Source of the DNA: a virus
Taxonomy: Duplodnaviria > Heunggongvirae > Uroviricota > Caudoviricetes
Direction: 5' to 3' (one strand)
Virus record (IMG/VR): IMGVR_UViG_3300042402_007287
DNA length: 39,004 nucleotides
Positions within the stretch are counted from its first letter, which is position 1, and each line of letters opens with the position of its first letter. Both the position numbers and the translations under genes were made by a program. This document shows, piece by piece, positions 2,521 through 39,004 of this stretch. A model generated the notes under the pieces. That model made no database searches, had not been told where the DNA came from, and worked only from the letters and a program-made list of their open reading frames with translations.

Positions 2521-2524
2521 AGGT

Positions 2525-5021: not shown

Positions 5022-5025
5022 GAGA

Positions 5026-5033: not shown

Positions 5034-5056
5034 AGGAATTAAAACAATAAAAAAAA

Positions 5057-7435: not shown

Positions 7436-7440
7436 TTTGA

Positions 7441-7620: not shown

Positions 7621-7621
7621 T

Positions 7622-7822: not shown

Positions 7823-7826
7823 AGTT

Positions 7827-8162: not shown

Positions 8163-8168
8163 AAAGTT

Positions 8169-11103: not shown

Positions 11104-12018
11104 TTATTTTATCTCAAAATAATATTCATCAATTTGACCTTTCAAATCACAAATATCTTTATCACGAGGTAACTTGACAATTTTTACCTTGTTATAGAGT
11201 CTACCTCCGTTTAGTTCATGATAGATTTTTAAACCATCCTCCCAAGCATCTCCATCACAACAAACTATAATGTTTCCGTTTGCCCTATTATACAGATTTT
11301 CGAATAGTAGTCTACTCATTTTTTTTCCCAACATAACAATTGGATTTTCCAAGAAGAATGAGTCAAAAACTCCCTCGACCAAGAAAATATCTTTGTTCCA
11401 ATCAATTAGACCCTCATTGAAAATGATTTCGTCTTTTTGTGCGGTCGGGTTTTTATATTTCATCTTCTTGTTTGTCCATGACCTAGCCACAAAATAATTT
11501 AATTGACCTTCCGCATTGTATGATGGAACAATTATCCTGTAAGCAAAATCCCCCTTCACCGTATAACCTATCTTATATTTCTCAATTATTTCATCGGTGA
11601 TACCTCTACTTTTTAAATAATTGTAAGCTTCGATGTGAGGTATGAATCTTGGATTTGAATCTTTGAACGTCATGTACCCTTCTGGAAGTCTGAACCAGAC
11701 ACGTTTCTTTTCCTCTTGTTTGAGTTCTTCAGGTTTTATGAGTTCATATACCTTTTTTTGTTTTTTAGTTCCGAATTTGTCAAATAATTTACCTAAGGGA
11801 CCATGTGTGCCCAAGGTTTCACCACAAGCCCAACATTTATAAACATGTCTTGAGTAATTTATTTCGAGGTTACCTTTACCATCACCGTTTTCGAGACCCT
11901 TTTCTGCCGCACAGACTGGACAATCGAATGATATCTGCGCCTTGGACTCATAATGATTATGGGGGTCGCCAAGCACATCAGTAAGTAATTCAACCAATAC
12001 TTCGACTTCGTCTTGCAT
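11104..12018 (-). CDS. dnaG: DNA primase (zinc-binding domain plus TOPRIM)
   Basis: CPVC...KCWAC zinc domain, YLKSRGI, VEGVFD, CCDGD, KDICD; TAATG overlap fixes the start at 12018. Confidence 0.9.
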   Translation of the reverse strand: MQDEVEVLVELLTDVLGDPHNHYESKAQISFDCPVCAAEKGLENGDGKGNLEINYSRHVYKCWACGETLGTHGPLGKLFDKFGTKKQKKVYELIKPEELKQEEKKRVWFRLPEGYMTFKDSNPRFIPHIEAYNYLKSRGITDEIIEKYKIGYTVKGDFAYRIIVPSYNAEGQLNYFVARSWTNKKMKYKNPTAQKDEIIFNEGLIDWNKDIFLVEGVFDSFFLENPIVMLGKKMSRLLFENLYNRANGNIIVCCDGDAWEDGLKIYHELNGGRLYNKVKIVKLPRDKDICDLKGQIDEYYFEIK

Positions 12019-12200
12019 TATCCTCTGAAATTTTTCCAACTGTCATCTGGGTCGGGGGCAACAATATGTTTCCTCCACCATTTCTTGATTGGGTTTGTTT
12101 CATTGAGATGATTTTCAATTATAACTCCAAAAAAGAATCCAATAGCGAAGATACAAAATAAGATAAACCAAACGGTGACCAAAAATTTTACAAGTTCCAT
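12018..12200 (-). CDS. Small single-TM protein
   Basis: Hydrophobic N-terminal segment; coupled to both neighbours. Confidence 0.55.
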   Translation of the reverse strand: MELVKFLVTVWFILFCIFAIGFFFGVIIENHLNETNPIKKWWRKHIVAPDPDDSWKNFRG

Positions 12201-23784: not shown

Positions 23785-25149
23785 TTATTTGTAATTTTCT
23801 AAGTAAAACTTCAAATCTTCAGGAGTACCGAGTCCGAACATTTTTTCTACATCATAGGTCTTTATTCTTTTTTTATCCTCAATAGCCTCATTAAAAACGG
23901 GACAAACATAAAATTCATTATTGGTTCTTATGTTTTTTGAAATCATTTGTTCTGCATATCTTACATAATCACTTCCTTTCGACCAATAGTAAATCCCAAC
24001 AGTTGCTTTGTCTGAAATAGGTTTTTTTTCTGCAACCTCGGTAACATATCCGAATTCATCACATTTAACGAACGACCATTTTGGATGGGTGGATTTGAAA
24101 GTGAGGATAGCAGCATCTAATTTAGTTTCATAAACTTTATAAAGAAACTCATTTGAGTTCCACTCTACGTATTGGTCTGAGTTTGAAATAAGAAGAGGTC
24201 GTTCATTATTTATTAAACTCTTAGCCAAAAGAGTGGTCACTGCGGCACCTTGTGTAACACCATCAACCTCAACAATTTGACAATTTGGCGTTATCAAGTT
24301 TAATAGGGTATCAAGATTATATTTTTCCCTGTGATTCCTCTGAACGATATAAATAAAATTAGCATCAATATTCAAATTTTCGACAATAACTTTAATCATG
24401 GGCTCTCCATTCACATCAATCAATGGTTTTGGGAAGGTATATCCCGCATTTTCGAATCTAGAACCAGCTCCCGCCATAGGAATTAGTACGTTCAAATTAT
24501 TATCTTTCCACTTAGGTTTTTTGTAAACTATATTTTTTTCCAAAATTGATAAAATTTTTTCGTATGTGACATCCTCGGGATTGTTGACCCTGAGTACGTG
24601 AGCTTTACTTCTATTTGCAGCCAACAAACCGTGTGGTGAATCCTCTATTATAAGTGTCTCGTCAGGTAAAAAACCCATACTACTCATAGCAGACCAATAA
24701 ATTTCGGGATGTGGTTTACCGTTTTTAACATCTTCGTTAGAAAGAATCAAATCCATGAACTCAATCAATCCAAGCTTGGATAACATGATAAGAACAGAAC
24801 GACGGATAGAATTAGAACAACATGCAATTTTAAAATTTTTTTCTCTAAGTTTTTTCATTATTTCTATCAGTCTATTGTTTGGAGAAAGTTTACTGATAGA
24901 ATTCAAAGTCAAATTCTGTTTTAGTTCCCAAATTTCTTTATAAAACTCTTCCGATAAACCCTTTTCTTTGGTGAGAATTTTTAGTTTTTCATAGGTTTTC
25001 AAACCGTCGTAAATTGATAGATGTTCCTTTTCTGAGATAATAAAATTAGAACCCCCAATTGACTCTATGGCGTTATTTAAAGTTAGAAAATGTATGTGTT
25101 TAGTTTCGACTAAAACCCCATCCAAATCAAAAATTATGAGTTTTATCAT
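23785..25149 (-). CDS. HAD phosphatase / sugar-phosphate nucleotidyltransferase fusion
   Basis: N-terminal FDLDGVLV, CCSNS, GKPHP, IEDS (HAD); C-terminal LIPMAGAGSRF...PKPLI, ISNSDQ, VAEKKP, GLGTPED (NTP transferase). Confidence 0.88.
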   Translation of the reverse strand: MIKLIIFDLDGVLVETKHIHFLTLNNAIESIGGSNFIISEKEHLSIYDGLKTYEKLKILTKEKGLSEEFYKEIWELKQNLTLNSISKLSPNNRLIEIMKKLREKNFKIACCSNSIRRSVLIMLSKLGLIEFMDLILSNEDVKNGKPHPEIYWSAMSSMGFLPDETLIIEDSPHGLLAANRSKAHVLRVNNPEDVTYEKILSILEKNIVYKKPKWKDNNLNVLIPMAGAGSRFENAGYTFPKPLIDVNGEPMIKVIVENLNIDANFIYIVQRNHREKYNLDTLLNLITPNCQIVEVDGVTQGAAVTTLLAKSLINNERPLLISNSDQYVEWNSNEFLYKVYETKLDAAILTFKSTHPKWSFVKCDEFGYVTEVAEKKPISDKATVGIYYWSKGSDYVRYAEQMISKNIRTNNEFYVCPVFNEAIEDKKRIKTYDVEKMFGLGTPEDLKFYLENYK

Positions 25150-25574
25150 TTTCTATATTCTAATGGTTTATCAGTACAGACCCCATATAATGTATCAGGG
25201 AGTATTTTATAATCAAGTTCAACAATGATACTCTCAGGGACAATTACGTTGTAATTACACCAAATAAAACCTTTACTCGTAATTGTCATTCTGTCATTTT
25301 CGTGCCAAAACCAATTTAATTCTGTTTGTTTCAAAATTCTTATTGAATCTAAATTTTTTGAATGAACCCACAAATTATCTTTCACTTCGTAAAGCCATTC
25401 TAGTGTCACAGATTCCTCAGGACTATCGTGACCCAAAAAAAAACCTTTTTCTGTATGCCAAAAATCAATCTCAACATCAAATCCTAATTCTATTGCTCTA
25501 ACCACACTTGATTTCTTGTTCTCTTCGTCCACTTTATTACCAAATAAATTTCCTCGGTGTGATATAATTTTCAT
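25146..25574 (-). CDS. Small GDPD / PLC-like phosphodiesterase-fold protein
   Basis: IISHRGN...EN...GFDVEID...LGHD...WVHSKN motifs. Confidence 0.75.
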   Translation of the reverse strand: MKIISHRGNLFGNKVDEENKKSSVVRAIELGFDVEIDFWHTEKGFFLGHDSPEESVTLEWLYEVKDNLWVHSKNLDSIRILKQTELNWFWHENDRMTITSKGFIWCNYNVIVPESIIVELDYKILPDTLYGVCTDKPLEYRK

Positions 25575-25581
25575 ATTCCTA

Positions 25582-26418
25582 TTATTTTGAGGCTAAACAA
25601 ATTCCTTCGTGGGAATGTAAAAGATACCCGTTCGATTTTAGATAATCGGTAAGAATTTCTTTTTGCTCTGGCACAAGATTATAATCTTCAAATATTATAA
25701 AATTTGTTAGAAATTTAGGGTGAAGTGATAATATTAAATTTGCATCCAATCCTTCGACATCTAAGTGAATCCAATCTAGTTTACCATCGCAATTTTTTTC
25801 AATGAAGTCGTTGATACTCATAGAATCTCTGACTGTACAATTTATCTCTTCTTTTTCCCAATTTTTAATCACAGTTTCATCCACACTATTTGTATAACCT
25901 TGACCCCCTTCATAGAATTTTACTTCACCCCCATTTGGAGTAATCAATTGTCTAAATGTTTTTATACAAGAATTATTATTGTAATTTAAGTTCAACTTGT
26001 TAAATTGTTTTTCGGACGCCTCAACTAAAAACATCTTAGCTTCTCTTCTCAAAGCAATTGGTACCCATTCACCAAATTCCCCATCATGTGTACCGATAAC
26101 CAAACCTTTTGGAAAAATACCATTAGAAATGAGTTTTTTATTATACAAAAATAAAGCCTTGTAAAAATAGTTACCATGCTCTATGACGTCCCAATTTTTT
26201 CTATACAAAATATGACCAAAAGAGTCAGAAATTTCTACGTCAAACATCTCAGTGTTTGGATAAGTTGCAAACCAAAAATCATGAACATTTGTTTCCCATT
26301 GTGTCTCTCCACTGACATGTTTTTTTATTTTTAGCCTCAAAGGTAAATTATTGTTGAACTTACTTATTTCACCAAAGTCAACTCGTATACCGTCTTTATT
26401 ATAAGTAACATTTATCAT
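25582..26418 (-). CDS. FkbM-family O-methyltransferase with an N-terminal beta domain
   Basis: GLVIGTHDG, FLVEAS, IHLDVEG motifs. Confidence 0.78.
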   Translation of the reverse strand: MINVTYNKDGIRVDFGEISKFNNNLPLRLKIKKHVSGETQWETNVHDFWFATYPNTEMFDVEISDSFGHILYRKNWDVIEHGNYFYKALFLYNKKLISNGIFPKGLVIGTHDGEFGEWVPIALRREAKMFLVEASEKQFNKLNLNYNNNSCIKTFRQLITPNGGEVKFYEGGQGYTNSVDETVIKNWEKEEINCTVRDSMSINDFIEKNCDGKLDWIHLDVEGLDANLILSLHPKFLTNFIIFEDYNLVPEQKEILTDYLKSNGYLLHSHEGICLASK

Positions 26419-26963
26419 TTTTTATGTTTTTCAATGAAATAATTTATATCGGAACTCCAAAGAATCATTCCCTCCTCTTTGATTTTGCTTTCATCCCAAG
26501 ACCACCATTCTATTTTCAGTAACTCTTCAATTTGACTTTTATCGAAGCGGTATTTTAATAATTTTGCAGGATTGCCACCCACTATGGAATATGGTTCAAC
26601 ATCTTTTGTCACCAACGCACCCGCAGCTACTATGGCACCATCCCCTATTTTCACTCCTGACATAATTGTTGATTTAGCACCAATCCAAACATCATTACCC
26701 ACAATAATATCCCCTTTACAAGATGGATGACCCATTTGCATGTGAAGAGATGCTATCTCAGGAGTAACAGGTCCCCAAAGTTGTGAGCTAGTTGTAATCC
26801 AATCAGGTCGGTGATTGGCGTGTAAGAAAAAATTACAATCTCTACCTATCGAACAATATTTACCAACTCTAACTTTATACTCATCGCTCCAAGAAATTAT
26901 ATTGACATTCCTGTCAAAATAAGTTCCTCTGTCGGCTAACCATAAATGAAGATTTTCTATCAT
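26415..26963 (-). CDS. Hexapeptide-repeat (LbH, CatB/Vat-like) O-acetyltransferase
   Basis: VGKYCSIG, H..DWITT, IIVGNDVWIG, IGDGAIVAAGALVTKDVEPYSIVGGNPAK. Confidence 0.88.
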   Translation of the reverse strand: MIENLHLWLADRGTYFDRNVNIISWSDEYKVRVGKYCSIGRDCNFFLHANHRPDWITTSSQLWGPVTPEIASLHMQMGHPSCKGDIIVGNDVWIGAKSTIMSGVKIGDGAIVAAGALVTKDVEPYSIVGGNPAKLLKYRFDKSQIEELLKIEWWSWDESKIKEEGMILWSSDINYFIEKHKK

Positions 26964-27889
26964 AATTTCTGAAGTGTGTTATGTTTAATTTTTTTTATTA
27001 TCTCTGTAATGTTTTTATTTGTATCAGCAATTTGTATACTAGTATTCTTTATTTCATTTTTCTTATATCCCAAATCAATTAAATCAAGGTTATTAATTTT
27101 ACGGGTATATTTTATATTATCTATAATAATTTTGACTTCGATTTCATCGGTTATGTCGTAAAAAAATAATTTTACATTTTCATCTTGTTCATCATTTTTT
27201 TCTATAAAAAACTTGACGGAATCAAATGGTGAAAAATTTAAAAAATCCTTATTCTCGTAATAAAATATTTCATCTTCTACCGGTATTTTTTCTATGTCAG
27301 AATTCAATTGTTTCCGATATACCTCTAACCAAGAAAAAGCATCACTGTTTTCCACACTTAAATAATTTTTCAAAGTAATCATAGAAGAAAATTTTTCTAA
27401 GTTTAACCTATCGAATATCATAAAGTGTAATCCAAAGGGCCAAATTTGATTATCTCTTTTGGATGGAAAAATTGAACATTTTCTATCGGAATTGAAAAAT
27501 TCTTTGAAGTCCTCTGTGATTTTAATATCATATATCATGTGAAAAAATTGTTCATATCCAAAGGTTAGTGCAATATCACTCAATTGTTTGACTTGATACA
27601 ATCCCGCAAAACCATAATCTGCGTATGTCACAGATAATTTGTAACTAGAATTATTATTACTTAGAATTCTCCAATAAAACATCGAACGTTCAGGCCAATC
27701 TAAAATTGGATTATCTTTTGTAATAAAAAAGTAATCACACATTTCCGTAATTTTCTTATCTATAACAAAAGGACTTATAACCAAAACATCAATACCTTGG
27801 GACTTGACTATTGATATGTTTTTTTTTAAAACATCTAACTTTTCATTTGTATCACAAAAGGAACTTATTAGTGCGATTTTTTTATTCAT
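26960..27889 (-). CDS. Hypothetical protein of the glycosylation locus (GT-like)
   Basis: 309 aa coupled by ATGA overlaps; IALISSF start and HMIYD motif; no family recognised with confidence. Confidence 0.5.
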   Translation of the reverse strand: MNKKIALISSFCDTNEKLDVLKKNISIVKSQGIDVLVISPFVIDKKITEMCDYFFITKDNPILDWPERSMFYWRILSNNNSSYKLSVTYADYGFAGLYQVKQLSDIALTFGYEQFFHMIYDIKITEDFKEFFNSDRKCSIFPSKRDNQIWPFGLHFMIFDRLNLEKFSSMITLKNYLSVENSDAFSWLEVYRKQLNSDIEKIPVEDEIFYYENKDFLNFSPFDSVKFFIEKNDEQDENVKLFFYDITDEIEVKIIIDNIKYTRKINNLDLIDLGYKKNEIKNTSIQIADTNKNITEIIKKIKHNTLQKL

Positions 27890-29538
27890 CTCATTTCATT
27901 TATAATTCCATTATCTGAATGGAACGGTTCGTTTATTTTTCTTTTTTCCAAAACTAACATACTATCATAATAGTGAATACCAAAAATATTTTTAGTTTCA
28001 TATCTTATCTCCTGTTGTTTGGAATGCCACGCATTTATATAATCAATAAAGTTTTTCGAATATTCTATAAAAGTACCCTCCTTTTTTAATCCTCCTCCGT
28101 AGAATTTGGGCCAATAGGATGTATGTAAATCTTCGCAGATGTATATGGAATCATCAGTCATATGGTCAATCATATGTTCATACGTGATAATTTGTTGACT
28201 CATTGTGTGCCCCCCATCGTCTATTATTATATCCAATTTTGGAATTTTAGTTTTTAGCGATTCTAAAAATTCTTCATCATCTTGGGAGCCTATGAATATT
28301 TCTATTTGTTCTTCTTCGTATATTTTACAATTAGTGTTTATATCTACTCCATAAATTTTTACCTTAGGTCCGAAATAATTTTTCCACATCTCAAGTGAAC
28401 CTCCGTTTTCTACACCAATTTCTAAAATACAAATTTCTTTACCTCTAAATTTAGAAAAATACCTATCGTAGACCTCTAAATAATGAAACCACTTATGAAT
28501 ATTTTTTTTCCCCTTTTTATTCAAGAAAAAATTCTCGAAATCATTTTTAGGTTGAATGTGTTTAATTTTTTCAAAAGTCTCATAATAATTTTTTTCTTTC
28601 TTTTTTGCAAAAATTAATCCTATGTCTGAATTAAAATCTTTTCCCTCCTCAAATTCCCAATCGAATTCATTTCTTTCTAATTTATCGATAAGAGATTTTA
28701 TCCTGAAGTCAGTGTTGAAGTGAAATTCAACATGTATTTTTTTTATTGTTTTAAAAAAAACGTCAGGTATAGATTCAAAAACCTCGTATTCCGTACCCTC
28801 ACAATCTATTTTCAAAAAATCTATTTTTTCAATCCCTTGTGATTTAATAAAATCATAAAAATTAACACACTGGACTTGGTAGGATTCTTTATAATCAACA
28901 ACACTGTCGTAAATAGATGAACCCAAGGTATTGTCTCCCTCGTAAAAAGTTAAAGTCTCATTTTTATCCGAAACTGCAAGATTGAAAACTTTAACAATAT
29001 CTTTTCTTGGGTAATCTTTCAACTTTTCAAAAATGTTTTTATTTGGTTCGAATCCGTAAATTTTTGAAGCTTTCTTCATAATTGCCCCTAAAGAAAAAAT
29101 ACCGTGATTGAATCCTATATCTACAACTACATCTCCTTCTTCCACATCTACAATATTTTCGTATTGTCTATCGCAGAAATGTTCTCTCAGAACATCGTTT
29201 ACACCCGCTTGTTGTCCGAGAGTATTTTGTTTTTGAACATTTGTAAGATAGTTTTCATAATCGTACTCTCTCAAATCTATATTTCCATCAAAAACAAATG
29301 GAGCAATCAATTCGTTGGTTTCTAAATCGTAAAAAAAAGCTCTCATATTTTTCCAACTACCAGGAATATATGTGAAATAATGAATGTTTGGATTTGTGTC
29401 AAGTTCCAAGTAATTACTGAACATAAAACTATTGGTGTATCCTTCATATAAATCTATCCTAACATGTAGTTTTTTATTCGAACAATTTAAATATTTTAAT
29501 TTTCTTTCTGATGCAGAATACTCGATAAACCTAATCAT
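27886..29538 (-). CDS. Double methyltransferase: FkbM domain plus class I sugar O-methyltransferase (MycE-like)
   Basis: VVVDIGFNHG, YGFEPN, LKIDCEGTE; then HKW.HY...Y, ILEIGVENGGSLEMW, GVDI, IIIDDGGH, YICED. Confidence 0.85.
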   Translation of the reverse strand: MIRFIEYSASERKLKYLNCSNKKLHVRIDLYEGYTNSFMFSNYLELDTNPNIHYFTYIPGSWKNMRAFFYDLETNELIAPFVFDGNIDLREYDYENYLTNVQKQNTLGQQAGVNDVLREHFCDRQYENIVDVEEGDVVVDIGFNHGIFSLGAIMKKASKIYGFEPNKNIFEKLKDYPRKDIVKVFNLAVSDKNETLTFYEGDNTLGSSIYDSVVDYKESYQVQCVNFYDFIKSQGIEKIDFLKIDCEGTEYEVFESIPDVFFKTIKKIHVEFHFNTDFRIKSLIDKLERNEFDWEFEEGKDFNSDIGLIFAKKKEKNYYETFEKIKHIQPKNDFENFFLNKKGKKNIHKWFHYLEVYDRYFSKFRGKEICILEIGVENGGSLEMWKNYFGPKVKIYGVDINTNCKIYEEEQIEIFIGSQDDEEFLESLKTKIPKLDIIIDDGGHTMSQQIITYEHMIDHMTDDSIYICEDLHTSYWPKFYGGGLKKEGTFIEYSKNFIDYINAWHSKQQEIRYETKNIFGIHYYDSMLVLEKRKINEPFHSDNGIINEMR

Positions 29539-31397
29539 ATTTCCAAGATTGTTTTTAGAATAATTCTATTTTTATTTTTCTCGATTATATCAATATAATA
29601 TTTTCCGTGGTGCAAATTTATGTCCGAAATAAAAAAAGTCCAATAATTAAAAATTTTTTGATTTTGTAAATTTAGAATTTCTTTTTTTTCACTATTTCTG
29701 ACAACGAAGTTGACAGTATCTTCAATTTTTTTACCTGTTAAAAAAGAGTTTCTTTGAAAGAACAATGTGTTGTTTTTAAAGTTTACCAAAAAATCATCCT
29801 CGCACAAAACAGTTTTACCGTAGTTTTCTCTTATTTTTTTGTAGAATTCAAAGTCTTTGAATCCGTGAAATATATAAATCTCATTTTCATTTTTTGGTAA
29901 TTTAACATGTTCGGAAATTAAACTTATATTGTAGCTGTAATTTTTAATTTTTTGCATATCTAAAAATGGTGATTCTTCCATATCAATTAATGGAAGTGAT
30001 TTTTTTAATTCATATTTAGATAATAATATATTAGCCGAGTCTTCGTCGTGTAATCTGAATATCCCTGGTTTTGTATTTTTGTATTTGTTGTATATTTCCA
30101 TCTGTTCTTCAAAGAACCATCTTGAATTTTTATCAAAAAGGATTACGTTGCATTTTCTTCTAGGAAATATTCTTATTGGTATATTAGTGACCTCTGACAA
30201 TATATCTAAAGTGCTTACCCATTCACGTGTAGGTAATATATCGTTAGCATAAAGTCTATCATGGACGTGGGAATTCATCAAAGGATAATTTTCGATTTCA
30301 TCGAAAAAGTTTCCTAAGTCATCGGAAACATTGGTTAAATAAACATCAGTGTCAATGTAAACAAATTTAGTATCACTTAGATAGTTTATCGCATCCGAAA
30401 GAATAATTGGTTTTGATGATAACACAGTTATATCTCTTCCATTTACGTCTAAATCACCTTTTGGTAAATCTAATCTCCTAACTATGAACTGTTCATCTAA
30501 ATTAGTAATAAGTTCAGAGGTATAGTTTATTGTATACAAAAGACATTTTCTGTTTGAATATTTTCGAATGGAATCGATAAAACCCTCGAGTAATTTTTCA
30601 TAATTTTCAGTGAAGTAGGTCACCCACATGAAGTCATCAGAAAATTTTTTGGAGTTTGTGCAAGTTATCGTATTACCAATTCGACTCAGTTTTGTGTTAT
30701 TCTTATTATAAAAATGATGTAGTAATTTTTCTTCCGAGTTTACATAAACCTTTCCTCCAAACCATTTACAATTTGGAATCAACTTTCCTTCTATAACATC
30801 AAAATTTGAACAATCATAAAGAATTTTTACTTTGGAATTTTTTTGATGAAGTTCGTTTAATTCATTTTCATCGAAAGCAATTACATCGTAGTTTATTAAA
30901 TTGTTTACGAATTCAGCAAACTTTATTTTGTAAATAGTTCTGTTTTGCTCGGTGTTTTTAATTATGGTAAGGGGTCCAGAAATTCTATCATGATAGTTTC
31001 GTTCTCCAAAAGAAATAACATCGAAAGATTCCAAATACGGGTCAACAAATTTTCTCAAGTCACCAAAAAGAGTATCAATGTCGTAATGCCCAAAAAAATC
31101 ATAACCTCTCAGATGTTCAGAAAACAAATCACCCAAAGATGATTTTAAAATACAAACATTCCTGAGATTATTAATTTTGTAGTCTATCCCAATTTTCGAC
31201 TTGATGAGTTTTTTTAAGGATTCTATCCCTACTTTAATAACTTTGTAATTTTTACTATTCAAATCAATATCTTGGTCAGTTACAAAAAGAAAATCTATAT
31301 TTAGATTTTTAGTTGTTTCATAGTGATACCAAAAATAATCAGGTATTTTTCCAATCCAAAGTTGAATAAGGATTATGTTGGGGTTTTTTATCTGCAT
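29535..31397 (-). CDS. Two-domain putative glycosyltransferase (DUF6625-like plus a GT-A-like domain)
   Basis: WIGKIPDYF...YDFFGHYDIDTLFGDL (DUF6625-like); second domain SKP...FVYIDTD...HDED. Confidence 0.7.
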   Translation of the reverse strand: MQIKNPNIILIQLWIGKIPDYFWYHYETTKNLNIDFLFVTDQDIDLNSKNYKVIKVGIESLKKLIKSKIGIDYKINNLRNVCILKSSLGDLFSEHLRGYDFFGHYDIDTLFGDLRKFVDPYLESFDVISFGERNYHDRISGPLTIIKNTEQNRTIYKIKFAEFVNNLINYDVIAFDENELNELHQKNSKVKILYDCSNFDVIEGKLIPNCKWFGGKVYVNSEEKLLHHFYNKNNTKLSRIGNTITCTNSKKFSDDFMWVTYFTENYEKLLEGFIDSIRKYSNRKCLLYTINYTSELITNLDEQFIVRRLDLPKGDLDVNGRDITVLSSKPIILSDAINYLSDTKFVYIDTDVYLTNVSDDLGNFFDEIENYPLMNSHVHDRLYANDILPTREWVSTLDILSEVTNIPIRIFPRRKCNVILFDKNSRWFFEEQMEIYNKYKNTKPGIFRLHDEDSANILLSKYELKKSLPLIDMEESPFLDMQKIKNYSYNISLISEHVKLPKNENEIYIFHGFKDFEFYKKIRENYGKTVLCEDDFLVNFKNNTLFFQRNSFLTGKKIEDTVNFVVRNSEKKEILNLQNQKIFNYWTFFISDINLHHGKYYIDIIEKNKNRIILKTILEI

Positions 31398-31449: not shown

Positions 31450-33732
31450 ATGATTAAAATATATGCACACGGTTCCTACGTTGGAAATACAGGTTATAAT
31501 CAACACACGAGGGATTTTTTTAGACATTTATCAAAACATGCCAAAATAAAGTTCCGAAATTTTACCGTTGGAAACTCTTGGAAAGGTTACAACTTAGAAC
31601 CTCACAATGAAGAACCATATTTCAACCAAACAGATAGAGAATTATTATATGAACAAGTACTTTGGGATGATGCCGCTAGAGGTAAAAGAAGTAATTATAA
31701 AATCTATCCTGATGAATCCAAAGAGTTCGAACAGGACTTGAACATAGTTTTGTGTGAAACTAATCATAATCTTTTTTATGATGAATACGAGGGTCCAAAG
31801 ATTGCATATAATGTTTGGGAGTCTACACTACAACCACAGGGTTATTTTAATAAATTATTAGAGTTTGACGAATTGTGGGTTCCTTCTGAATGGCAGAAAG
31901 ATTGTACTGTGAAACAAGGATATCCCTCAGATAAAATAAAAGTTGTCCCTGAAGGTGTAGACATCAAAACTTTTTATCCCGATAAGAATGCAAAACACCC
32001 TTTGACCGAAGGAAAATTTACATTCTTCTTAGCCGGTCGTTGGGACTACAGGAAATCGATAAAGGAAATTATCGAAACATTTATAAAAACGTTTGATAAA
32101 ACTGTAAATGTTGAATTGATAATATCAGTAGATAATCCTTTTTCCAACGATGGATTGAGCTCCACTGAAGAAAGATTGAAACATTATGAACTTGAAGATG
32201 AAAGAATAAAAATTTTACATTTTCCACCAAGAGAAGAGTACATCAAACTTCTAAAATCATGTAGTGTATTTGTTTCATGTGCGAGGTCTGAAGGTTGGAA
32301 CCTTCCTCTAATTGAATCTATGGCTTGTGGTACACCATCAATATATTCGAACTGTTCAGGTCAGTTAGAATTTGCAAAAAACAAAGGTCTTCCTGTAAAA
32401 ATATCACACGAGCTACCTGTAAGTGCAAGTACTTACAACCATTTTAACGACAATGTTGGGAATTACTATGAACCTGATTTTGAGGATTTATCGAGAGTAA
32501 TGAAATACGCCTACGAAAATTACGAATCCATTAAAAAAACTGCGTTGATTGATTCCGAAAAAATTAGAAAAGATTTCAATTGGGAAAATGTTGCTAAGAT
32601 TGGGTTAGATACAATCAAAGATTTTTTGAAAAGACATAAATCATTACCCCCCAAACCAAAGAAAAAAAATGAAATTATTGTTTCATATTTAGATGGTCCG
32701 AGAGTTGAGGTTTTGGGAGACGATAAGGAAAATTATCTTGTTGAATTTATAAATTCGGATACAGGAGAAGTTATACATTCACAAACAATAAGTAATAACA
32801 TGTGGACCGCTTGCGGAAAAAAATATTACATTCCATGGGAAATAAAGATAAATGGAAAATTATTCGATAAGTTAGACTTAGAGGGTAAAGAAGTGATGAT
32901 AACCTTGGAGTCAAGTTCTCTTGGTGACACAATAGCTTGGACACCATATGCCGTAAAATTTGCAGAAAAACATAAATGTAAAGTTATTATGGCAACCTTT
33001 CATAATGAGTTTTTCCAAAATTTAAAGACATACGAAAATATCAAATTTATTAAACCAGGTGTTTCTCATACGTGTCATGCAATATACAGGATTGGCTGGT
33101 TCAAAGAAAATAATAAATGGGAAGTTTTTGACAAATACCCAAATCAAGTAAATTTAATCCCAATACAACAGACATCCTCAGACATTTTGGGATTAGATTT
33201 TCAAGAATTGAACTTAGGTTTAGATTTCAAAAAAGGTGATTCTCCATTAGATAAAGATTATGTTGTATTTGGACCAAACGCAACTTCAGGTTGTAAAGAA
33301 TGGGACTATAATAGTTGGGTAACCTTATCAAAATTGTTGCAAGAAATAGGATATGAAGTTGTTATCATAACAAAAAACCCTTTCATGATTGAAGGTACGA
33401 CAAATATTTGGGGTGAAAGTTTGAATGTGGTTGCAAATTACTTATATCATGCAAAAGCATTCATAGGGTTAGGTTCAGGACTTTCTTGGTTGAATTGGGG
33501 TTTGGGTAAACATACTTACATGATAAATGGTTTTTCTAAACCTGGTCATGAATTCACAAGTAAAATAACACGTATTCAAAACAACGTTTGTATATTTTGT
33601 TGGAATGATGAAGTATTTGTTTTTGATGCTGGAGATTGGGATTGGTGTCCCGTCTATAAGGGAACTAAAAAACAGCACATCTGTCAAAGGTCAATAACAC
33701 CATTACAAGTTTTCCAAAGTTTAGAATTATGA
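31450..33732 (+). CDS. Fusion of a GT4 glycosyltransferase and an Aah/TibC-type (BAHT) O-heptosyltransferase
   Basis: GT4 SEGWNLPLIESMACGTP; then beta-barrel YLDGPRV...DTGEVI...KKYYIPW, SSLGDTIAWTPYAVKF, FIGLGSGLSWL and iron-finger CIFCWND...WCP...IC. Confidence 0.85.
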   Translation: MIKIYAHGSYVGNTGYNQHTRDFFRHLSKHAKIKFRNFTVGNSWKGYNLEPHNEEPYFNQTDRELLYEQVLWDDAARGKRSNYKIYPDESKEFEQDLNIVLCETNHNLFYDEYEGPKIAYNVWESTLQPQGYFNKLLEFDELWVPSEWQKDCTVKQGYPSDKIKVVPEGVDIKTFYPDKNAKHPLTEGKFTFFLAGRWDYRKSIKEIIETFIKTFDKTVNVELIISVDNPFSNDGLSSTEERLKHYELEDERIKILHFPPREEYIKLLKSCSVFVSCARSEGWNLPLIESMACGTPSIYSNCSGQLEFAKNKGLPVKISHELPVSASTYNHFNDNVGNYYEPDFEDLSRVMKYAYENYESIKKTALIDSEKIRKDFNWENVAKIGLDTIKDFLKRHKSLPPKPKKKNEIIVSYLDGPRVEVLGDDKENYLVEFINSDTGEVIHSQTISNNMWTACGKKYYIPWEIKINGKLFDKLDLEGKEVMITLESSSLGDTIAWTPYAVKFAEKHKCKVIMATFHNEFFQNLKTYENIKFIKPGVSHTCHAIYRIGWFKENNKWEVFDKYPNQVNLIPIQQTSSDILGLDFQELNLGLDFKKGDSPLDKDYVVFGPNATSGCKEWDYNSWVTLSKLLQEIGYEVVIITKNPFMIEGTTNIWGESLNVVANYLYHAKAFIGLGSGLSWLNWGLGKHTYMINGFSKPGHEFTSKITRIQNNVCIFCWNDEVFVFDAGDWDWCPVYKGTKKQHICQRSITPLQVFQSLEL

Positions 33733-34619
33733 AAACAATCTTGATTAAACTACTTTCAAACTCATTAGGAGATACAATCGCCATCATGCCATGTGTTGAT
33801 TATTTCATTGAGCGAAGTAGTGATAATGTTTTGTTACAAATAAACAAAAACTTCGAATTTTTATTTAGAAATTCTTTTCCGAAAATAAAATATTTTTCGG
33901 AGGATATGAATTTTGATAAAAAAATTGATTTGGTCTATAACCACACTAAACCATTACAAACAGGATACGCCAATCAACTCGGATTTATAGATTGGTCATA
34001 TATTAGACCAAAAGTTGATTCATTCACATCTGATAGACCAATAAAAAATAAATATGTTTCCATGAGTATACACTCAACATCACAGTTAAAATATTGGAAT
34101 CATAAAGATGGTATCTCTGTTCAACCATTATCACCAAATTGGTCCGAACTTTCAGGTATGATAAGAAAAAAGGGATATACCCCTGTAATAATTGAAAGGG
34201 ATGAAATGTTCGGACTACCTCCATTCAGAAATGGAATGCCAACAAAAGCCCAAAAAGTTTTTGGTATATCCCTTTTGGATACTATGAATTACATTCACCA
34301 CTCAGAGTTTTTTATTGGACTTTCTTCAGGACTTTCATGGTTGGCTCATGCCATGGGAAAAAAGGTTTGTATGATTTCTAATTTCACCGAAGAATCACAT
34401 GAATTTGATTTATCAACAAATGATTACGTTAGAATTACAAATAAATCTGTTTGTCATGGATGTTGGAATCAGGTCGGAAAGGGACTATATTTTGACAATG
34501 AAGACTGGTATTGGTGTCCCAAACATAAAGGTACTGAGAGACAGTTTGAATGTCACACATCAATAACACCACAAATGGTGATGGATAAAATAAATAATTG
34601 GTTAAATTATGAAAAATAA
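33729..34619 (+). CDS. Aah/TibC-type O-heptosyltransferase lacking the N-terminal barrel
   Basis: SNSLGDTIA, HST...K.W, FFIGLSSGLSWLAHAMGKKVCMISNF and iron-finger CHGCWN...FD..DW.WCPKHKGTERQFECHTSITP. Confidence 0.85.
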   Translation: MKTILIKLLSNSLGDTIAIMPCVDYFIERSSDNVLLQINKNFEFLFRNSFPKIKYFSEDMNFDKKIDLVYNHTKPLQTGYANQLGFIDWSYIRPKVDSFTSDRPIKNKYVSMSIHSTSQLKYWNHKDGISVQPLSPNWSELSGMIRKKGYTPVIIERDEMFGLPPFRNGMPTKAQKVFGISLLDTMNYIHHSEFFIGLSSGLSWLAHAMGKKVCMISNFTEESHEFDLSTNDYVRITNKSVCHGCWNQVGKGLYFDNEDWYWCPKHKGTERQFECHTSITPQMVMDKINNWLNYEK

Positions 34620-35241
34620 AACTTACGGTTTAGTTATTAGTTCATACAAATATGGTCACTTAGCATCCCATTGCATAGAATCAGTTCTATGTCAAACAAA
34701 AAAATTTGACAAAATATGGTTTGTAGACGATGGTGTAGGTGATTGTTATTTTCTTGAAAAATTATATCCTACAATACATTTTGTTTTCAGGAAAGAAAAT
34801 TATGGGGTTGTCAAAAATTTCCAAGATATGCTCCAAAAAGTAGATACTGATTTCGTAATGTTTTTAGGTGCGGATAATTGGTTGCGTGCAGATACACTAG
34901 AGCGTTTAACTTATATGAAACCTCACACCGATATTGTAACTTTTGATGTTATAGTTACAGGAACACTAAGACATGAAATAATTACTACTTACCCAAATGA
35001 AATAACTAAAACTATGGGTGATTTTTATTGGTCCAGAAAATTCAAACATCATGGGTCTATGTTATATAACACAAAACTTGCATTAGAAAGTGGTGGTTAT
35101 GCAAATAATTTTACAAGTATAAGGACAGATGAGGACCTGAATCTATGGGAAAAAATGATAAAAAGAGGTGCGACTTTAAGTCATGTGGAAGAGGGTCTCC
35201 TCTATTATCGAAGACATCAAGAAAATTTTTATAAATATTAA
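34609..35241 (+). CDS. GT2-family glycosyltransferase
   Basis: SSYKYG...CIESVL.Q, VDDG, FLGADNW, DEDLNLW, YYRRH. Confidence 0.85.
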   Translation: MKNKTYGLVISSYKYGHLASHCIESVLCQTKKFDKIWFVDDGVGDCYFLEKLYPTIHFVFRKENYGVVKNFQDMLQKVDTDFVMFLGADNWLRADTLERLTYMKPHTDIVTFDVIVTGTLRHEIITTYPNEITKTMGDFYWSRKFKHHGSMLYNTKLALESGGYANNFTSIRTDEDLNLWEKMIKRGATLSHVEEGLLYYRRHQENFYKY

Positions 35242-35978
35242 GGGGTTGCTACTCCTCTTTTAGAAACCACTATCGAAGATTTTTCATTAGCATAGATTAT
35301 TGACTCTTCAATGTCTTTTGTTTTGAAATAAGCCAATATAAAGGCAGTAGTGAATGTATCACCAGCTCCACTGACATCTATCGTTTCTTGTGGTTTGGGG
35401 CTTTTATAAATGGTACCGTCATACTTAGCACCTTTTTCCCCTAAAGTGACTATTATGTTTTTACAATTTTGTAAATCTAAATTGTTATTAGCCTCTTTTT
35501 CATTCAACTTTACAAACGTAAATGAATCGACTATTTCTCTATTTAGTTTTCTTTTGGAGTCGAGAATGGAAAGTTTGGAGAATTTCCCCAAATATTTTAA
35601 CCATTCATCATCTAAAAAACCTTTATTATAATCAGATACAATAACAATATCGAAATTTTTTATACTAGACAATCTTTCCTGTGAATGGGTCATAGGTGAA
35701 ATATATGACTCACCGTCATCCAATCTCAAAAACATGTGATTAGTTTTTCTATCAACAAATCTAGTTTTGAATACTCTTTCACTTTGATACCAATGCTCAA
35801 TACTACAATCTTGCTCAAGAGCCTTGAGGTTCTCCACAACATTACCTGACATTCCAGGATTTTGTATGGTTTGTACAGGATTCATTACAGGAACTGGAGC
35901 TTCAGGACAAAGTCTTTTACACTCTCCGTATATGAAATTATCTTCACAAAGTTCTCCAACAACAAGTATTTTTATCAT
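35238..35978 (-). CDS. rfaE1: RfaE/HldE domain I: heptose-7-phosphate kinase (PfkB family)
   Basis: ILVVGE..ED..IYG...RLCPEAPVPV, GMSGNV, SDYNKG, LDSK, VKLNE.E, DVSGAGDTF. Confidence 0.88.
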   Translation of the reverse strand: MIKILVVGELCEDNFIYGECKRLCPEAPVPVMNPVQTIQNPGMSGNVVENLKALEQDCSIEHWYQSERVFKTRFVDRKTNHMFLRLDDGESYISPMTHSQERLSSIKNFDIVIVSDYNKGFLDDEWLKYLGKFSKLSILDSKRKLNREIVDSFTFVKLNEKEANNNLDLQNCKNIIVTLGEKGAKYDGTIYKSPKPQETIDVSGAGDTFTTAFILAYFKTKDIEESIIYANEKSSIVVSKRGVATP

Positions 35979-36364
35979 TTTTTATAATAATTTAAAATTT
36001 TTGTTGAACTATAGTTTGGTATTTTTTCAAAGAAAACAAGTTTTTTTGCGTGTTCACTTCCGTACACTATTTGTTCTTTATAATCATCACCGATGACCAT
36101 AATGTCAGGTGAGAAGTTTTTTACGTTTTCGATGAGTTCTTCTCTTGAATCGAATAACACCACTTCATCAACAAATTTTATGGATTCTAGCATTTTTTTT
36201 CTATCATCTTGAGTGTTGAAGGGTCTGTCTTCCCCTTTCAATTCTTTAACTCTTTTATCTGTGTCTATTCCTACTCTTAAATAACCAAATTGAGATGCAA
36301 ATTCCAAAAGTTTTATATGACCTATGTGTAATATGTCAAATGTACCATTTACCCAAACTTTCAT
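35975..36364 (-). CDS. rfaE2: RfaE/HldE domain II: heptose-1-phosphate nucleotidyltransferase (cytidyltransferase-like)
   Basis: VNGTFDILHIGH, GIDTD..VKELKG..RP, VDEVVLFD, GDDY, YSST. Confidence 0.85.
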   Translation of the reverse strand: MKVWVNGTFDILHIGHIKLLEFASQFGYLRVGIDTDKRVKELKGEDRPFNTQDDRKKMLESIKFVDEVVLFDSREELIENVKNFSPDIMVIGDDYKEQIVYGSEHAKKLVFFEKIPNYSSTKILNYYKK

Positions 36365-36666
36365 AATTCTTCAATTCTTTTTGATTTGTCACAAATTATC
36401 AAATCATAATGGGGTTTGTGGTTCATTTTTAATTCGTGAAACTTACAACCCCACTCATTCAATTGTTTGAATGTCAGTTCACTCCAATCACGTTTTGTTT
36501 TCTGCCCTCTTGCAGTATAATAAACAATCGTGTGACCTTCATCATACAATTTATTTATTTTATCAATATGATGAGGGAATGGTTCCGCTTCGTTATAATC
36601 TTTGACTAAACTACAAATAGTCCCATCTATATCTACGTATATTATTTTTGGCTGTCCCCTTTCCAT
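36361..36666 (-). CDS. Small HAD phosphatase (EcbF/BcbF capsule-biosynthesis type)
   Basis: YVDIDGTIC, YYTARG, KPHYDLIICDK motifs. Confidence 0.8.
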   Translation of the reverse strand: MERGQPKIIYVDIDGTICSLVKDYNEAEPFPHHIDKINKLYDEGHTIVYYTARGQKTKRDWSELTFKQLNEWGCKFHELKMNHKPHYDLIICDKSKRIEEL

Positions 36667-37028
36667 ACTCTATATGAATCTGAATCAAAATGTTGAGTTG
36701 ATACTTCAAATACTTCGCCATCAGTGATAGCTTCTAATTGATGTGGTTGACCAGGTAATTGTCTAACAGTATCACCAGGTTTTAGTATTGTTTCCATAGT
36801 ATCTGCGGTTTCCACATCAATCCATCTATAAATAAACTCACCTGAATTTACATACCAAGTTTCGTCTTTAATCATATGATAATGCATAGAGAACTTTGCA
36901 CCCTTTTTGAATACTAAAACTTTACCACAATAAAGTGGGTCATTTATTATAATAATTTCATGCCCCCAACCCTTTGGTATTTTGCATTCGGGACACTCAT
37001 GAACATTTACAACTGAAGGTTTCCTCAT
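36642..37028 (-). CDS. Cupin-fold sugar isomerase/epimerase
   Basis: KGWGHE, SMHYHMIKDETWYV, PGQPHQL, FEVST cupin metal motifs. Confidence 0.82.
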   Translation of the reverse strand: MRKPSVVNVHECPECKIPKGWGHEIIIINDPLYCGKVLVFKKGAKFSMHYHMIKDETWYVNSGEFIYRWIDVETADTMETILKPGDTVRQLPGQPHQLEAITDGEVFEVSTQHFDSDSYRVWKGDSQK

Positions 37029-37097: not shown

Positions 37098-39004
37098 TTA
37101 AGGTTTCGTTGGAATGTATTCGAGTAGTGGTGGATTTACGTCTTTACGTTCAGCTTGTATGAAGAAGTAAGCGTTTATATTTCCTTTTTCTGAATCAACA
37201 TAAACTTTATTATCTTCAATTTTAACAACAAAGTGAGTGTTTGGTTCTCCGATTGATGTAAACTGAACCGTTATACTATTTGAATCAACTAACTCGGTCC
37301 AATAATCTGGTAATTCAATTACATTTGAAGTTACAACACCTCTGACATATACACCATGTTCAGGACCTTCCAACACACCGTATCTCAACCTCATTCCAGA
37401 TTTTGTTGGGTGAGGAATGTCGAATGATTTAGAAGACGCTGTAAAGTCTCCATACAAAGTGAATGTTGCTTCTGTCTGTAATCCCATTACAGCGTTTGTA
37501 CCATCAAACGTAAAGTTTTGTTCACCATTTATGACACCAGCAGTTCCTGTTGCGGTAAGAATGTAGTTGTTTGTGTTGTTATTGATTGTTGCAGTTCCTG
37601 ATGTACCTGAGCTACCGCTCGTACCAGATGAACCAGACGTTCCTGAGCTACCTGAGGTTCCTGATGAACCAGACGTTCCTGAGCTACCTGAGGTTCCTGA
37701 TGAACCAGACGTTCCTGAGCTACCGCTCGTACCTGATAAACCACTCGAACCAGATGTTCCTGAAGAACCAGATGTACCACTCGAGCCACTTGTTCCTGAT
37801 GAACCTGATGTTCCACTTGCTCCACTAACTCCACTAGTACCCGATGAACCAGAGGTTCCTGAGCTTCCGCTTGTTCCTGAAGAACCTGAGCTACCACTTG
37901 TTCCAGATGAACCAGATGTTCCACTTGAACCTGAGCTACCTGATGTTCCACTTGAACCTGAGCTACCTGATGTTCCACTTGAGCCAGAAGAGCCAGATGT
38001 TCCTGATGAACCTGATGAGCCAGATGTTCCTGATGAACCGCTCGTACCAGATGAACCAGACGTTCCTGAGCTACCTGAGCTTCCGCTTGTTCCTGAAGAA
38101 CCTGAGCTACCACTTGTTCCTGAAGAACCTGAGCTACCACTTGTTCCAGATGAACCAGATGTTCCACTTGAACCTGAGCTACCTGATGTTCCACTTGAGC
38201 CAGAAGAGCCAGATGTTCCTGATGAGCCAGATGTTCCTGAAGAACCTGATGAGCCAGATGTTCCTGATGAACCTGATGAGCCAGATGTTCCTGATGAACC
38301 GCTCGTACCAGATGAACCAGACGTTCCTGAGCTACCTGAGCTTCCGCTTGTTCCTGAAGAACCTGAGCTACCACTTGTTCCTGAAGAACCTGAGCTACCA
38401 CTTGTTCCAGATGAACCAGATGTTCCACTTGAACCTGAGCTACCTGATGTTCCACTTGAGCCAGAAGAGCCAGATGTTCCTGATGAGCCAGATGTTCCTG
38501 AAGAACCTGATGAGCCAGATGTTCCTGATGAACCTGATGAGCCAGATGTTCCTGATGAACCGCTCGTACCAGATGAACCAGACGTTCCTGAGCTACCTGA
38601 GCTTCCGCTTGTTCCTGAAGAACCTGAGCTTCCGCTTGTTCCTGATGAACCGCTCGTACCAGATGAACCAGACGTTCCTGAGCTACCTGAGGTTCCTGAT
38701 GAACCTGATGAGCCAGATGTTCCTGATGAACCTGAGCTACCACTTGTTCCTGAAGAACCTGAGCTACCTGATGTTCCTGATGAACCTGAGCTACCGCTCG
38801 TACCAGATGAACCAGATGTTCCACTTGAACCTGAGCTTCCGCTTGTACCTGAAGAACCAGATGTACCACTTGAGCCACTTGTTCCTGATGAACCTGAGCT
38901 ACCGCTCGTACCAGATGAACCAGATGTTCCACTTGAACCTGAGCTTCCGCTTGTACCTGAAGAACCAGATGTACCACTTGAGCCACTTGTTCCTGATGAA
39001 CCTG
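37098..39004 (-). CDS. Tail-fibre-like protein with a collagen-like (Gly-X-Ser)n region and a conserved C-terminal domain; 5' end outside window
   Basis: The frame of track ORF 37098-37487 stays open to 39002: (GSS/GTS)n, then GTATINNNTNNYILTATGTAGVINGEQNFTFDGTNAV, then M...KSFDIPHP...LRYGVLEGPEHGVYVRG...IELPDYW. At least 634 aa. Confidence 0.88.
   Translation of the reverse strand, partial: GSSGTSGSSGTSGSSGTSGSSGSSGTSGSSGTSGSSGSSGTSGSSGTSGSSGTSGSSGSSGTSGSSGTSGSSGSSGTSGSSGSSGTSGSSGSSGTSGSSGSSGTSGSSGTSGSSGTSGSSGTSGSSGSSGTSGSSGSSGTSGSSGTSGSSGTSGSSGSSGTSGSSGSSGTSGSSGTSGSSGSSGTSGSSGSSGTSGSSGTSGSSGSSGTSGSSGSSGTSGSSGSSGTSGSSGTSGSSGTSGSSGSSGTSGSSGSSGTSGSSGTSGSSGSSGTSGSSGSSGTSGSSGTSGSSGSSGTSGSSGSSGTSGSSGSSGTSGSSGTSGSSGTSGSSGSSGTSGSSGSSGTSGSSGSSGTSGSSGSSGTSGSSGTSGSSGSSGTSGSSGTSGSSGTSGVSGASGTSGSSGTSGSSGTSGSSGTSGSSGLSGTSGSSGTSGSSGTSGSSGTSGSSGTSGSSGTSGSSGTSGSSGTSGTATINNNTNNYILTATGTAGVINGEQNFTFDGTNAVMGLQTEATFTLYGDFTASSKSFDIPHPTKSGMRLRYGVLEGPEHGVYVRGVVTSNVIELPDYWTELVDSNSITVQFTSIGEPNTHFVVKIEDNKVYVDSEKGNINAYFFIQAERKDVNPPLLEYIPTKP
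37599..39002 (-). repeat. About 156 Gly-X-Ser triplets with nested 261-nt and 108-nt direct repeats
   Basis: 1404 nt in register. Identical sequence recurs at 38041, 38302 and 38563 (261-nt period); a 108-nt period is present near the window end. Confidence 0.9.

Follow-up and report, generated by a model that had tools for sequence, protein, structure and literature searches.

Bacterial autotransporter heptosyltransferases (BAHT), among them TibC and AAH, which attach heptose to Escherichia coli adhesins, modify the autotransporter adhesins of Gram-negative pathogens and are known in connection with virulence. They are defined by an autotransporter substrate gene that follows the transferase gene and by more than 50% homology to TibC or AAH (Yao et al. 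2014, PMC4358343). In the same work, the protomer of TibC from enterotoxigenic Escherichia coli (ETEC; PDB 4RAP and 4RB4) was described as an N-terminal beta-barrel, a GT-B core, a thumb shaped as a beta-hairpin, and an iron finger. The barrel (residues 1-97) is flattened and its deletion leaves no activity, the thumb has a hydrophobic tip (Phe-265/Val-266), links dimers and is needed for the dodecamer, the finger holds iron as 1Fe-0S, and the oligomer is a ring-shaped homododecamer (PMC4358343). The key residues are Asp-110, Thr-226, Lys-230, Arg-286 and Trp-305, of which Arg-286 contacts the adenine of ADP-heptose, is highly conserved in BAHT enzymes and, when mutated, abolished or largely diminished activity (PMC4358343). 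Here we describe two adjacent genes, open reading frames (ORFs) 1 and 2, in 39,004 nucleotides of DNA (hereafter the window) from the Caudoviricetes virus record IMGVR_UViG_3300042402_007287. Sequence comparisons and structure models show that their products, which diverged from each other long ago, belong to the TibC/AAH-like branch of the GT-B glycosyltransferases related to GT9, a branch that carries a four-cysteine (Cys4) finger. We think it probable that they are a cooperating pair which O-glycosylates the phage's own fibre proteins, probably with heptose, acting as associated modules together with extension and tailoring enzymes.

ORF1 (31450..33732, plus strand) codes for 760 amino acids (aa), a fusion of a GT4 module, a beta-barrel and a TibC-like catalytic domain, and ORF2 (33729..34619, plus strand) codes for a barrel-less TibC-like catalytic domain of 296 aa. 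The profile of the autotransporter strand-loop-strand O-heptosyltransferases (TIGR04414, NCBIfam cut-off 200 bits) matched ORF1 residues 406-758 with 215.4 bits (E 1e-63) and ORF2 with 188 bits (E 2e-55); the latter match covers profile positions 83-372 only and falls under the cut-off because the 82 positions of the barrel are missing. TibC was also the sole solved match in a sequence search of the PDB (E 1e-36 for the C-terminal part of ORF1 and 1e-31 for ORF2), and these E-values, together with those of TIGR04414, therefore indicate homology and not chance, at an identity to TibC of 27-30% for the two proteins. A tblastn search of 72,556 plasmids with the C-terminal module of ORF1 matched 212 records, and the annotated matches listed were all autotransporter O-heptosyltransferase genes, with 29-35% identity. 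The profile of lipopolysaccharide (LPS) heptosyltransferase I (TIGR02193) gave 22.4 bits for ORF1 and 17.7 bits for ORF2, far under its NCBIfam cut-off of 185.3 bits. The Pfam family PF01075 matched ORF1 with 28.9 bits (cut-off 22), which points to kinship at superfamily level only, and did not match ORF2.

The AlphaFold (AF2) models reached a pLDDT of 89.7 for ORF1 and 96.1 for ORF2. With both models, the first 21 Foldseek matches were TibC chains (E ~1e-24 to 1e-27); for ORF2, TibC (E 9e-25, TM 0.83) was followed by GT9 enzymes at E 1e-9, and for ORF1 the 21 TibC chains were followed by GT4 enzymes. WaaC, WaaF and WaaU formed an outgroup branch both in a FastTree phylogeny of 142 TibC-like domains (support 96) and in an IQ-TREE phylogeny of 86 rows under a mixture model (support 97). 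The proteins themselves belong to separate, well-supported clades (support 100 and 93-98), the catalytic part of ORF1 being 31.5% identical to ORF2, and a sister relationship of the two clades was not rejected by the AU test (p 0.278). The preliminary description of this DNA had assigned both proteins to the Aah/TibC family and had proposed profile comparison and phylogeny against BAHT and GT9 enzymes as a check; neither protein clustered with the LPS GT9 enzymes. The TibC-like lineage is thus borne out by profiles, PDB search, Foldseek and trees, and the features of a strict BAHT enzyme are partly absent. Because of their departures in thumb, barrel, Arg-286, overall identity and autotransporter neighbourhood, described below, we place the two proteins in a wider TibC-like Cys4-finger lineage and not among the BAHT enzymes in the strict sense.

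The motifs on which that assignment had been based are all present in the translations. SLGD is found at residues 490-493 of ORF1 and 12-15 of ORF2, and the FIGL.SGLSWL motif occurs as FIGLGSGLSWL at 671-681 and as FIGLSSGLSWL at 195-205, respectively. The four cysteines of ORF1 (C714, C717, C733 and C745; finger bases 33589-33684) are spaced x2-x15-x11, as are those of the TibC iron finger (Cys-339, Cys-342, Cys-358 and Cys-370; PMC4358343), and those of ORF2 (C242, C245, C263 and C275; finger bases 34452-34553) are spaced x2-x17-x11, the middle loop being two residues longer. By analogy, both fingers may bind a metal. In the alignment, CxxC is absent from E. coli WaaC, WaaF and WaaU, which show a gap where the Cys4 finger lies, so that the finger does separate both proteins from the LPS GT9 enzymes, as had been proposed. 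The equivalents of TibC D110, T226, K230 and W305 are D493, T612, K616 and W680 in ORF1 and D15, T117, K121 and W204 in ORF2. These Asp, Thr, Lys and Trp residues and the four cysteines are essentially invariant across both family alignments and the 142 diverse domains, the four cysteines being invariant in 141 of the latter, and the catalytic and sugar-binding residues and four cysteines of ORF2 are invariant in 60 family members down to 34% identity. The position of Arg-286 is taken by Val in ORF1 and by Thr in ORF2, and among the 142 domains, 43 have Arg there, 35 have Thr and 26 have Val. At the site of TibC Pro-300, which bears on selectivity between D,D- and L,D-heptose, ORF1 has Gly and ORF2 has Ser; AAH, which accepts both heptose epimers, likewise has a serine there (Ser-294).

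The two proteins differ in their architecture. The TibC-like catalytic GT-B domain of ORF1 (residues 479-760; 32884..33732, plus strand) is preceded by an N-terminal beta-barrel (residues 406-478; 32665..32883, plus strand), whose strands lie at 408-474 in the AF2 model and which aligns to TibC from residue 22 on; PF21129 (TibC_1st) gave a weak match at 414-467. ORF2 starts about 10 residues ahead of SLGD, and the proposal that one paralogue has the barrel and the other lacks it thus agrees with the model of ORF1 and with the part of TIGR04414 that ORF2 matches. The thumb of ORF1 is reduced to a 12-residue loop (segment TKNPFMIEGTTN), compared with 21 residues in AAH, and this shortened loop is conserved through the ORF1 clade with the consensus T-[KQ]-x-P-F-x-I-[DE]-G. 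In ORF2, a thumb-length segment of 21 residues (156-176) is retained, with Pro-Phe at the tip positions according to our own count on the TibC alignment. Among the 142 domains, 47 of 51 barrel-less ones keep the thumb and 34 of the 38 short thumbs are found in barrel-bearing domains. A thumb-less ORF1 and a barrel-less ORF2 would argue against a homododecamer of the TibC type.

The N-terminal ~398 residues of ORF1 (residues 1-398; 31450..32643, plus strand) are a separate and complete GT4 (GT-B) module, which the preliminary description had passed over, with the E-x7-E motif SEGWNLPLIES and a match to Pfam Glycos_transf_1 (PF00534) at 179-312 (E 4e-16, 59.4 bits, cut-off 26.4). In Foldseek its fold matched MshA, GlgM, BshA and HepE (E 1e-12 to 1e-13), as well as a chlorella-virus glycosyltransferase and SdgB; identity to Streptomyces-phage glycosyltransferases was 24-26%. 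In a 652-aa metagenomic protein (P0216), a TibC-like module of the ORF1 clade has ankyrin repeats in place of GT4, and the N-terminal partner domain of ORF1-type modules appears to be exchangeable.

ORF1 and ORF2 are joined by a four-base overlap (ATGA), in which the ATG of ORF2 overlaps the TGA of ORF1. At every locus retrieved through an ORF2 relative of at least 55% identity (L002-L006 and L014), the 760-aa form lies directly upstream and overlaps it, and a long form paired with a short form was also found in L012, L013, L098-L101, L107 and L110. In L116 and L120, a barrel form is followed by an overlapping barrel-less form, without GT4. The TibC-like family comprises 1,099 clusters at 50% identity, and the representatives of these clusters include tandem single-chain fusions (P0246, P0248, P0244, P0252, P0254, P0249 and P0243). 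P0246, which sits in a phage locus adjoining a T4 neck-protein gene, consists of an ORF1-type barrel and catalytic unit followed after ~10 residues by an ORF2-type unit with 41% identity to ORF2. The order of units is the same in P0248 and reversed in P0244, P0254 combines GT4 with two barrel-less units, and P0243 contains three TibC-like units.

The complex predicted for ORF1 residues 400-760 with ORF2 scored 0.75, and the best of three controls scored 0.00; among solved complexes 58 of 80 attain this mark, and among mismatched pairs 2 of 110 do so. Contact agreement between runs was at least 91%, and partner pLDDT was at least 90. On the ORF1 side the predicted interface involves the thumb remnant (643-646) and the finger loop (726-732), and on the ORF2 side the N-lobe (26, 29, 64, 66, 73 and 83-88) and the finger (250-254). 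Strand 64-68 is, from our reading of the predicted secondary structure, the last strand of the ORF2 N-lobe, and the modelled N-lobe interface may correspond to the face that is covered by the barrel in TibC. A hetero-oligomer, as raised in the preliminary description, is thereby indirectly suggested by the fusions, the overlapping pairs, the complementary loss of barrel and thumb and the complex prediction.

The most likely acceptor is a (Gly-Ser/Thr-Ser)n collagen-like fibre, whose gene lies 3' of the pair on the minus strand (37098..39004) and is cut by the end of the window; its translated 3' part contains 156 GX[ST] triplets. An orthologous fibre gene is found directly 3' of the pair and convergent to it in L002-L006, L013 and L014; the L006 fibre has 1668 aa and 452 Gly-X-Ser triplets, and the L002 fibre at least 541 Gly-X-Ser triplets. 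Eighty IMG/VR loci with 10-kb flanks, some of them near-duplicates, were picked solely for the presence of a TibC-like gene. A GX[ST] collagen-like ORF was present in 41 of them, within 1 kb of that gene in 23 of the 41 and within 3 kb in 30, and a uniform spread over the flanks would put about one tenth of the fibre ORFs within 1 kb. In L002, L006 and L013 the public gene calls are on the wrong strand of the fibre genes (L002 11384-16453, L006 12152-16399 and L013 15544-20592, all plus strand) and give 'PEEPEVPDEP' proteins of 1400-1700 aa; the minus strand encodes the real products, which are (GSS/GTS)n fibres that share a conserved domain at the C-terminus (FDIPHP...LRYGVLEGPEHGVY).

A second acceptor candidate is a possibility, namely the Thr-Pro linkers of a 1639-aa protein with repeated Cys-rich domains (18569..23488, minus strand), which contains 124 [TS]P[TS] sites. 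Giant Thr-Pro-rich proteins flank the other side of the gene island in the window, L006, L012 and L013. At least two of the Cys-rich domains, which start with CNCT[FY], are near-identical and are split by the Thr-Pro linkers, and the domain also occurs in L006 1-643.

The genes that might supply and elaborate the sugar lie on both sides of the pair. ORF2 overlaps by 11 bases a gene for a GT2 (GT-A) glycosyltransferase (34609..35241, plus strand; Pfam Glycos_transf_2, 3e-13), which is likely to belong to the same operon as ORF1 and ORF2 and to extend the glycan. It is followed on the minus strand by four overlapping genes (35238..37028) for an HldE-kinase-like protein, an HldE-adenylyltransferase-like protein, a small HAD phosphatase and a cupin. 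In the viral loci L129, L152, L156 and L176, TibC-like genes of different build have the same kinase, nucleotidyltransferase, HAD and cupin operon at a distance of 0.8-1.3 kb and in convergent orientation, and because this operon recurs beside TibC-like genes in these four loci it appears to be tied to the transferase family. From its gene content, it is a candidate pathway for the NDP-heptose donor. In L013, a PfkB kinase and a cupin follow the pair (13989-15119), and this locus has no nucleotidyltransferase or HAD gene; the operon is thus modular, with kinase and cupin as its possible core.

Upstream of the pair, the minus strand carries a set of tailoring and donor genes (23785..31397), recognized by Pfam, for a HAD and NTP-transferase protein, FkbM methyltransferases, a hexapeptide acyltransferase, a double methyltransferase and a DUF6625 protein, and L002-L006 and L012-L014 have this set on the upstream side of their pair as well. 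The first of these, in which a HAD phosphatase and a sugar-phosphate nucleotidyltransferase are fused (23785-25149, minus strand), suggests a second sugar-activation route. The double methyltransferase is a 550-aa protein (27886-29538, minus strand) with an FkbM and a Methyltransf_24 domain. In L012 (15545-17986) and L014 (10497-11252), an APS-kinase-like gene, sulfotransferase genes and a 2OG-Fe(II) oxygenase gene were seen beside the TibC-like pair, and such neighbours hint that glycans or fibres are sulfated or tailored in some other way.

During infection, ORF1 and ORF2 would take NDP-heptose as the donor and move the heptose to Ser/Thr hydroxyls of the repeat-rich fibre proteins of the phage. 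The collagen-like fibre encoded 2.5 kb downstream would be the first candidate for the acceptor, and the Thr-Pro linkers of the 1639-aa protein are a second possibility. The modules would be physically paired, with ORF1 bringing barrel and finger and ORF2 bringing thumb and finger. The sugar would then be extended by the GT4 module of ORF1 and the coupled GT2, and the glycan tailored by the methyl- and acyltransferases of the gene island. A bolder version of this scheme, which we hold to be doubtful, is that the pair is an obligate hetero-oligomer that replaces the TibC homododecamer and processively hyper-heptosylates every third residue of the proline-free Gly-X-Ser fibre, so that the glycan and not (hydroxy)proline stabilises or shields the triple helix.

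Several observations weigh against fibre heptosylation by an associated pair. Since Arg-286 is replaced by Val or Thr, the nucleotide part of the donor may differ from that of ADP-heptose. The putative donor kinase (rfaE_dom_I, 124.9 bits) and nucleotidyltransferase (rfaE_dom_II, 97.7 bits) are both under their NCBIfam cut-offs, and no GmhA/SIS-type isomerase was found in the profile scan of the window proteins. The figures for linkage to fibre genes are inflated, because several of the 80 loci are near-duplicates and GX[ST] fibres are common among these phages. The predicted interface is small (~35 contacts), and the passing complex score may reflect likeness and not binding of the two proteins to each other, because TibC is a solved homo-oligomer. 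ORF2 might be inactive alone, since TibC without its barrel is inactive (PMC4358343). Finally, the long form stands without a short partner in L011, a 390-kb contig with a T4-type neck protein and a terminase, and in the cultured Microcystis phage Mel-JY01 (L001, PP395634), so that a complex is not obligatory for ORF1-type enzymes.

The lone occurrence of ORF1-type genes is also consistent with two independent enzymes that form no stable complex and either differ in acceptor (Ser of the Gly-X-Ser fibre for one and Thr of the Thr-Pro linkers for the other) or act in sequence, one priming protein-O-heptose and the other adding a second heptose, like WaaC and WaaF in the LPS core. Different specificities would fit the 31.5% identity and the separate clades, the difference between Gly and Ser at the Pro-300 site, and the presence of both candidate acceptor types at the flanks of the island. 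However, the tandem fusions and the tight translational coupling suggest 1:1 proximity, independent action leaves the complementary pattern of barrel and thumb unexplained, and the complex prediction beats its controls. Such a division of labour, to which we give a lesser but appreciable chance, is moreover compatible with a complex whose members still split tasks. It is extremely improbable that ORF2 is a duplicate in decay or without catalytic activity, serving for instance as scaffold or regulator: the inactivity of barrel-less TibC (PMC4358343) and a TIGR04414 score of 188 against a cut-off of 200 would speak for it, but the low score is explained by the 82 absent profile positions, the catalytic and sugar-binding residues and four cysteines are invariant in the 60 members down to 34% identity, the family counts thousands of members of constant length, and the model is highly confident (pLDDT 96).

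Two other readings change the target and leave the enzymes active. In the first, the targets would be host structures such as LPS, adhesins or autotransporter-like proteins, whose modification could, for example, prevent superinfection or change the cell surface during infection. This might be expected from the characterised family members, which modify bacterial surface adhesins (PMC4358343), and from the relatives present in 465 bacterial species genomes. Yet no autotransporter or host-type gene lies near the pair, its neighbours being glycosyltransferase, sugar-activation and fibre genes; the island is bordered by fibre and structural genes, close linkage to GX[ST] fibres is seen again and again across viral contigs, and none of ORF1, ORF2, GT2, the DUF6625 protein and the double methyltransferase matched a PADLOC defence family. 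We regard a host target as quite improbable. A role of the island in hypermodification of the phage DNA with sugars, such as heptosylated 5-hydroxymethylcytosine (5hmC), is very improbable. A preprint does report that a phage GT-B, together with a HAD/APH enzyme and a cytidylyltransferase, equips 5hmC with one or two heptose units (10.1101/2023.12.21.572611), and the MshA/BshA-like fold of the ORF1 GT4 module is also found in those DNA glycosyltransferases. However, the DNA glycosyltransferases of the preprint resemble T4 beta-GT and are unlike TibC. Among the window ORFs scanned, genes for a dCMP hydroxymethylase, a 5mC methylase or a TET-type enzyme were not found, and an N6-adenine-type enzyme was the only match to a DNA methylase. 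Moreover, protein is the sole kind of substrate known for the TibC fold, finger and barrel. A host target, a DNA target and an inactive ORF2 thus gained no positive support from this analysis, and glycosylation of the phage's own fibres by the cooperating pair is the reading that we retain.

The family is large and widespread. Metagenome searches gave 3,418 ORF2-like matches of ~293 aa and 1,579 matches to the TibC-like part of ORF1 in proteins of 418-1330 aa; nearly all of the best 120 of these 1,579 were ~760 aa long and carried a GT4 domain. At least 577 IMG/VR viral contigs contained relatives when searched with an alignment, and the single ORF2 protein used as query had found no match in the viral contigs. 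The related contigs reach 320-390 kb and carry a T4-type neck protein, a terminase, a RecA-like recombinase and a DnaB-type helicase, in agreement with the phage setting given in the preliminary description. The 3.2-kb DNA of the pair had no match in 50,697 phage records. Exact copies of the sequence were present in 19 lake and freshwater metagenome DNA runs from 2016 to 2023, and a single RNA run among the sequencing runs contained 6% of the words of the sequence. The long form of Mel-JY01 (4747-8430) is a 1227-aa protein with GT4, a middle domain, a barrel and a TibC-like domain (TIGR04414, 317 bits), annotated as 'methyltransferase FkbM' only, and the HldE-kinase-like protein had no match in this phage. 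At 1-3049 of the same phage, a plus-strand frame with ~200 Gly-X-Y triplets overlaps coding sequences annotated on the minus strand and may be a mis-annotated collagen-like gene.

The best match of ORF2 in a genome collection (L018) was a contig binned in a Saprospirales metagenome-assembled genome; it carries a 661-aa tandem GT9-like protein, and its gene content did not tell phage from host. This match, SprB repeats in a 701-aa protein of the window (15539-17644, minus strand) and a primase (11104-12039, minus strand) whose nearest relatives are Flavobacterium phage primases at 32% identity are all weak hints of a Bacteroidota host. The left part of the window carries genes for a sigma-70-type factor, a T4 denV-like pyrimidine dimer glycosylase and an SbcC/Rad50-like protein (1210-2007, 4548-5021 and 5057-7435, all minus strand), which are ordinary for large phages.

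The pair shares with TibC and AAH the GT-B core, the Asp base, the Thr/Lys phosphate contacts, the Trp sugar contact and the Cys4 finger, with equal finger spacing in ORF1, as well as the barrel in ORF1 and a hairpin segment of thumb length in ORF2. Unlike TibC and AAH, it is encoded by a phage, has ~30% identity to them, has no autotransporter gene next door and has other residues in place of Arg-286; ORF1 is fused to GT4 and lacks the thumb, ORF2 lacks the barrel, and the two paralogues are joined by coupling or, in relatives, by fusion. The acceptor of TibC and AAH is the beta-helix passenger domain, whereas that of the pair is likely to be a collagen-like Gly-X-Ser fibre. WaaC and WaaF (CAZy GT9) belong to the same GT-B superfamily, probably use the same kind of donor and provide a precedent for sequential paralogues, but they lack the Cys4 finger, the barrel and the thumb, branch separately in the trees and act on lipid-linked sugars.

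The GXT repeats of Bacillus anthracis BclA are O-glycosylated, and the fibrils of giant viruses are likewise glycosylated collagen-like proteins. As in the fibre of the window, for which glycosylation is only proposed, these are collagen-like Gly-X-Ser/Thr repeats with dense surface O-glycans; in contrast, their transferase families and sugars are others, and the repeat of the window is proline-free with TibC-like candidate transferases. To our knowledge, the mycobacteriophage and Streptomyces-phage systems include neither a TibC-like module nor a heptose pathway nor an acceptor of the collagen-like kind. The glycosyltransferases of the latter two groups are nevertheless phage enzymes that decorate the phage's own structural proteins, as is proposed for the pair, virion protein glycosylation in mycobacteriophages being credited to Freeman et al. 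2023 by a citation in PMC12582341. The 'contig 53' DNA heptosylation cluster (10.1101/2023.12.21.572611) combines a phage GT-B with HAD/kinase and nucleotidyltransferase functions like the window, but its acceptor is 5hmC and its transferase is T4 beta-GT-like, and genes forming 5hmC were not found among the window ORFs scanned.

No description of phage TibC-like enzymes was found in the literature searched, although automatic annotation already names many metagenomic TibC-like proteins. What is new is the paired, partly fused and complementary form of the TibC architecture, which most likely serves virion fibre glycosylation. The BAHT enzymes form a small corner of a far larger family, in which many members are multi-domain or paired and the viral members adjoin collagen-like Gly-X-Ser/Thr fibre genes. 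If our reading is true, the window would encode a self-contained viral system for protein O-heptosylation, with donor synthesis, two transferases and tailoring enzymes, and would present a natural experiment in which the ring architecture of TibC has been split into two complementary subunits. It would also explain how proline-free collagen-like fibres may be stabilised or masked. If the pair were in addition an obligate hetero-oligomer, TibC-like enzymes would be a widespread virion-glycosylation machinery of freshwater jumbo phages, beyond the adhesins of pathogens.

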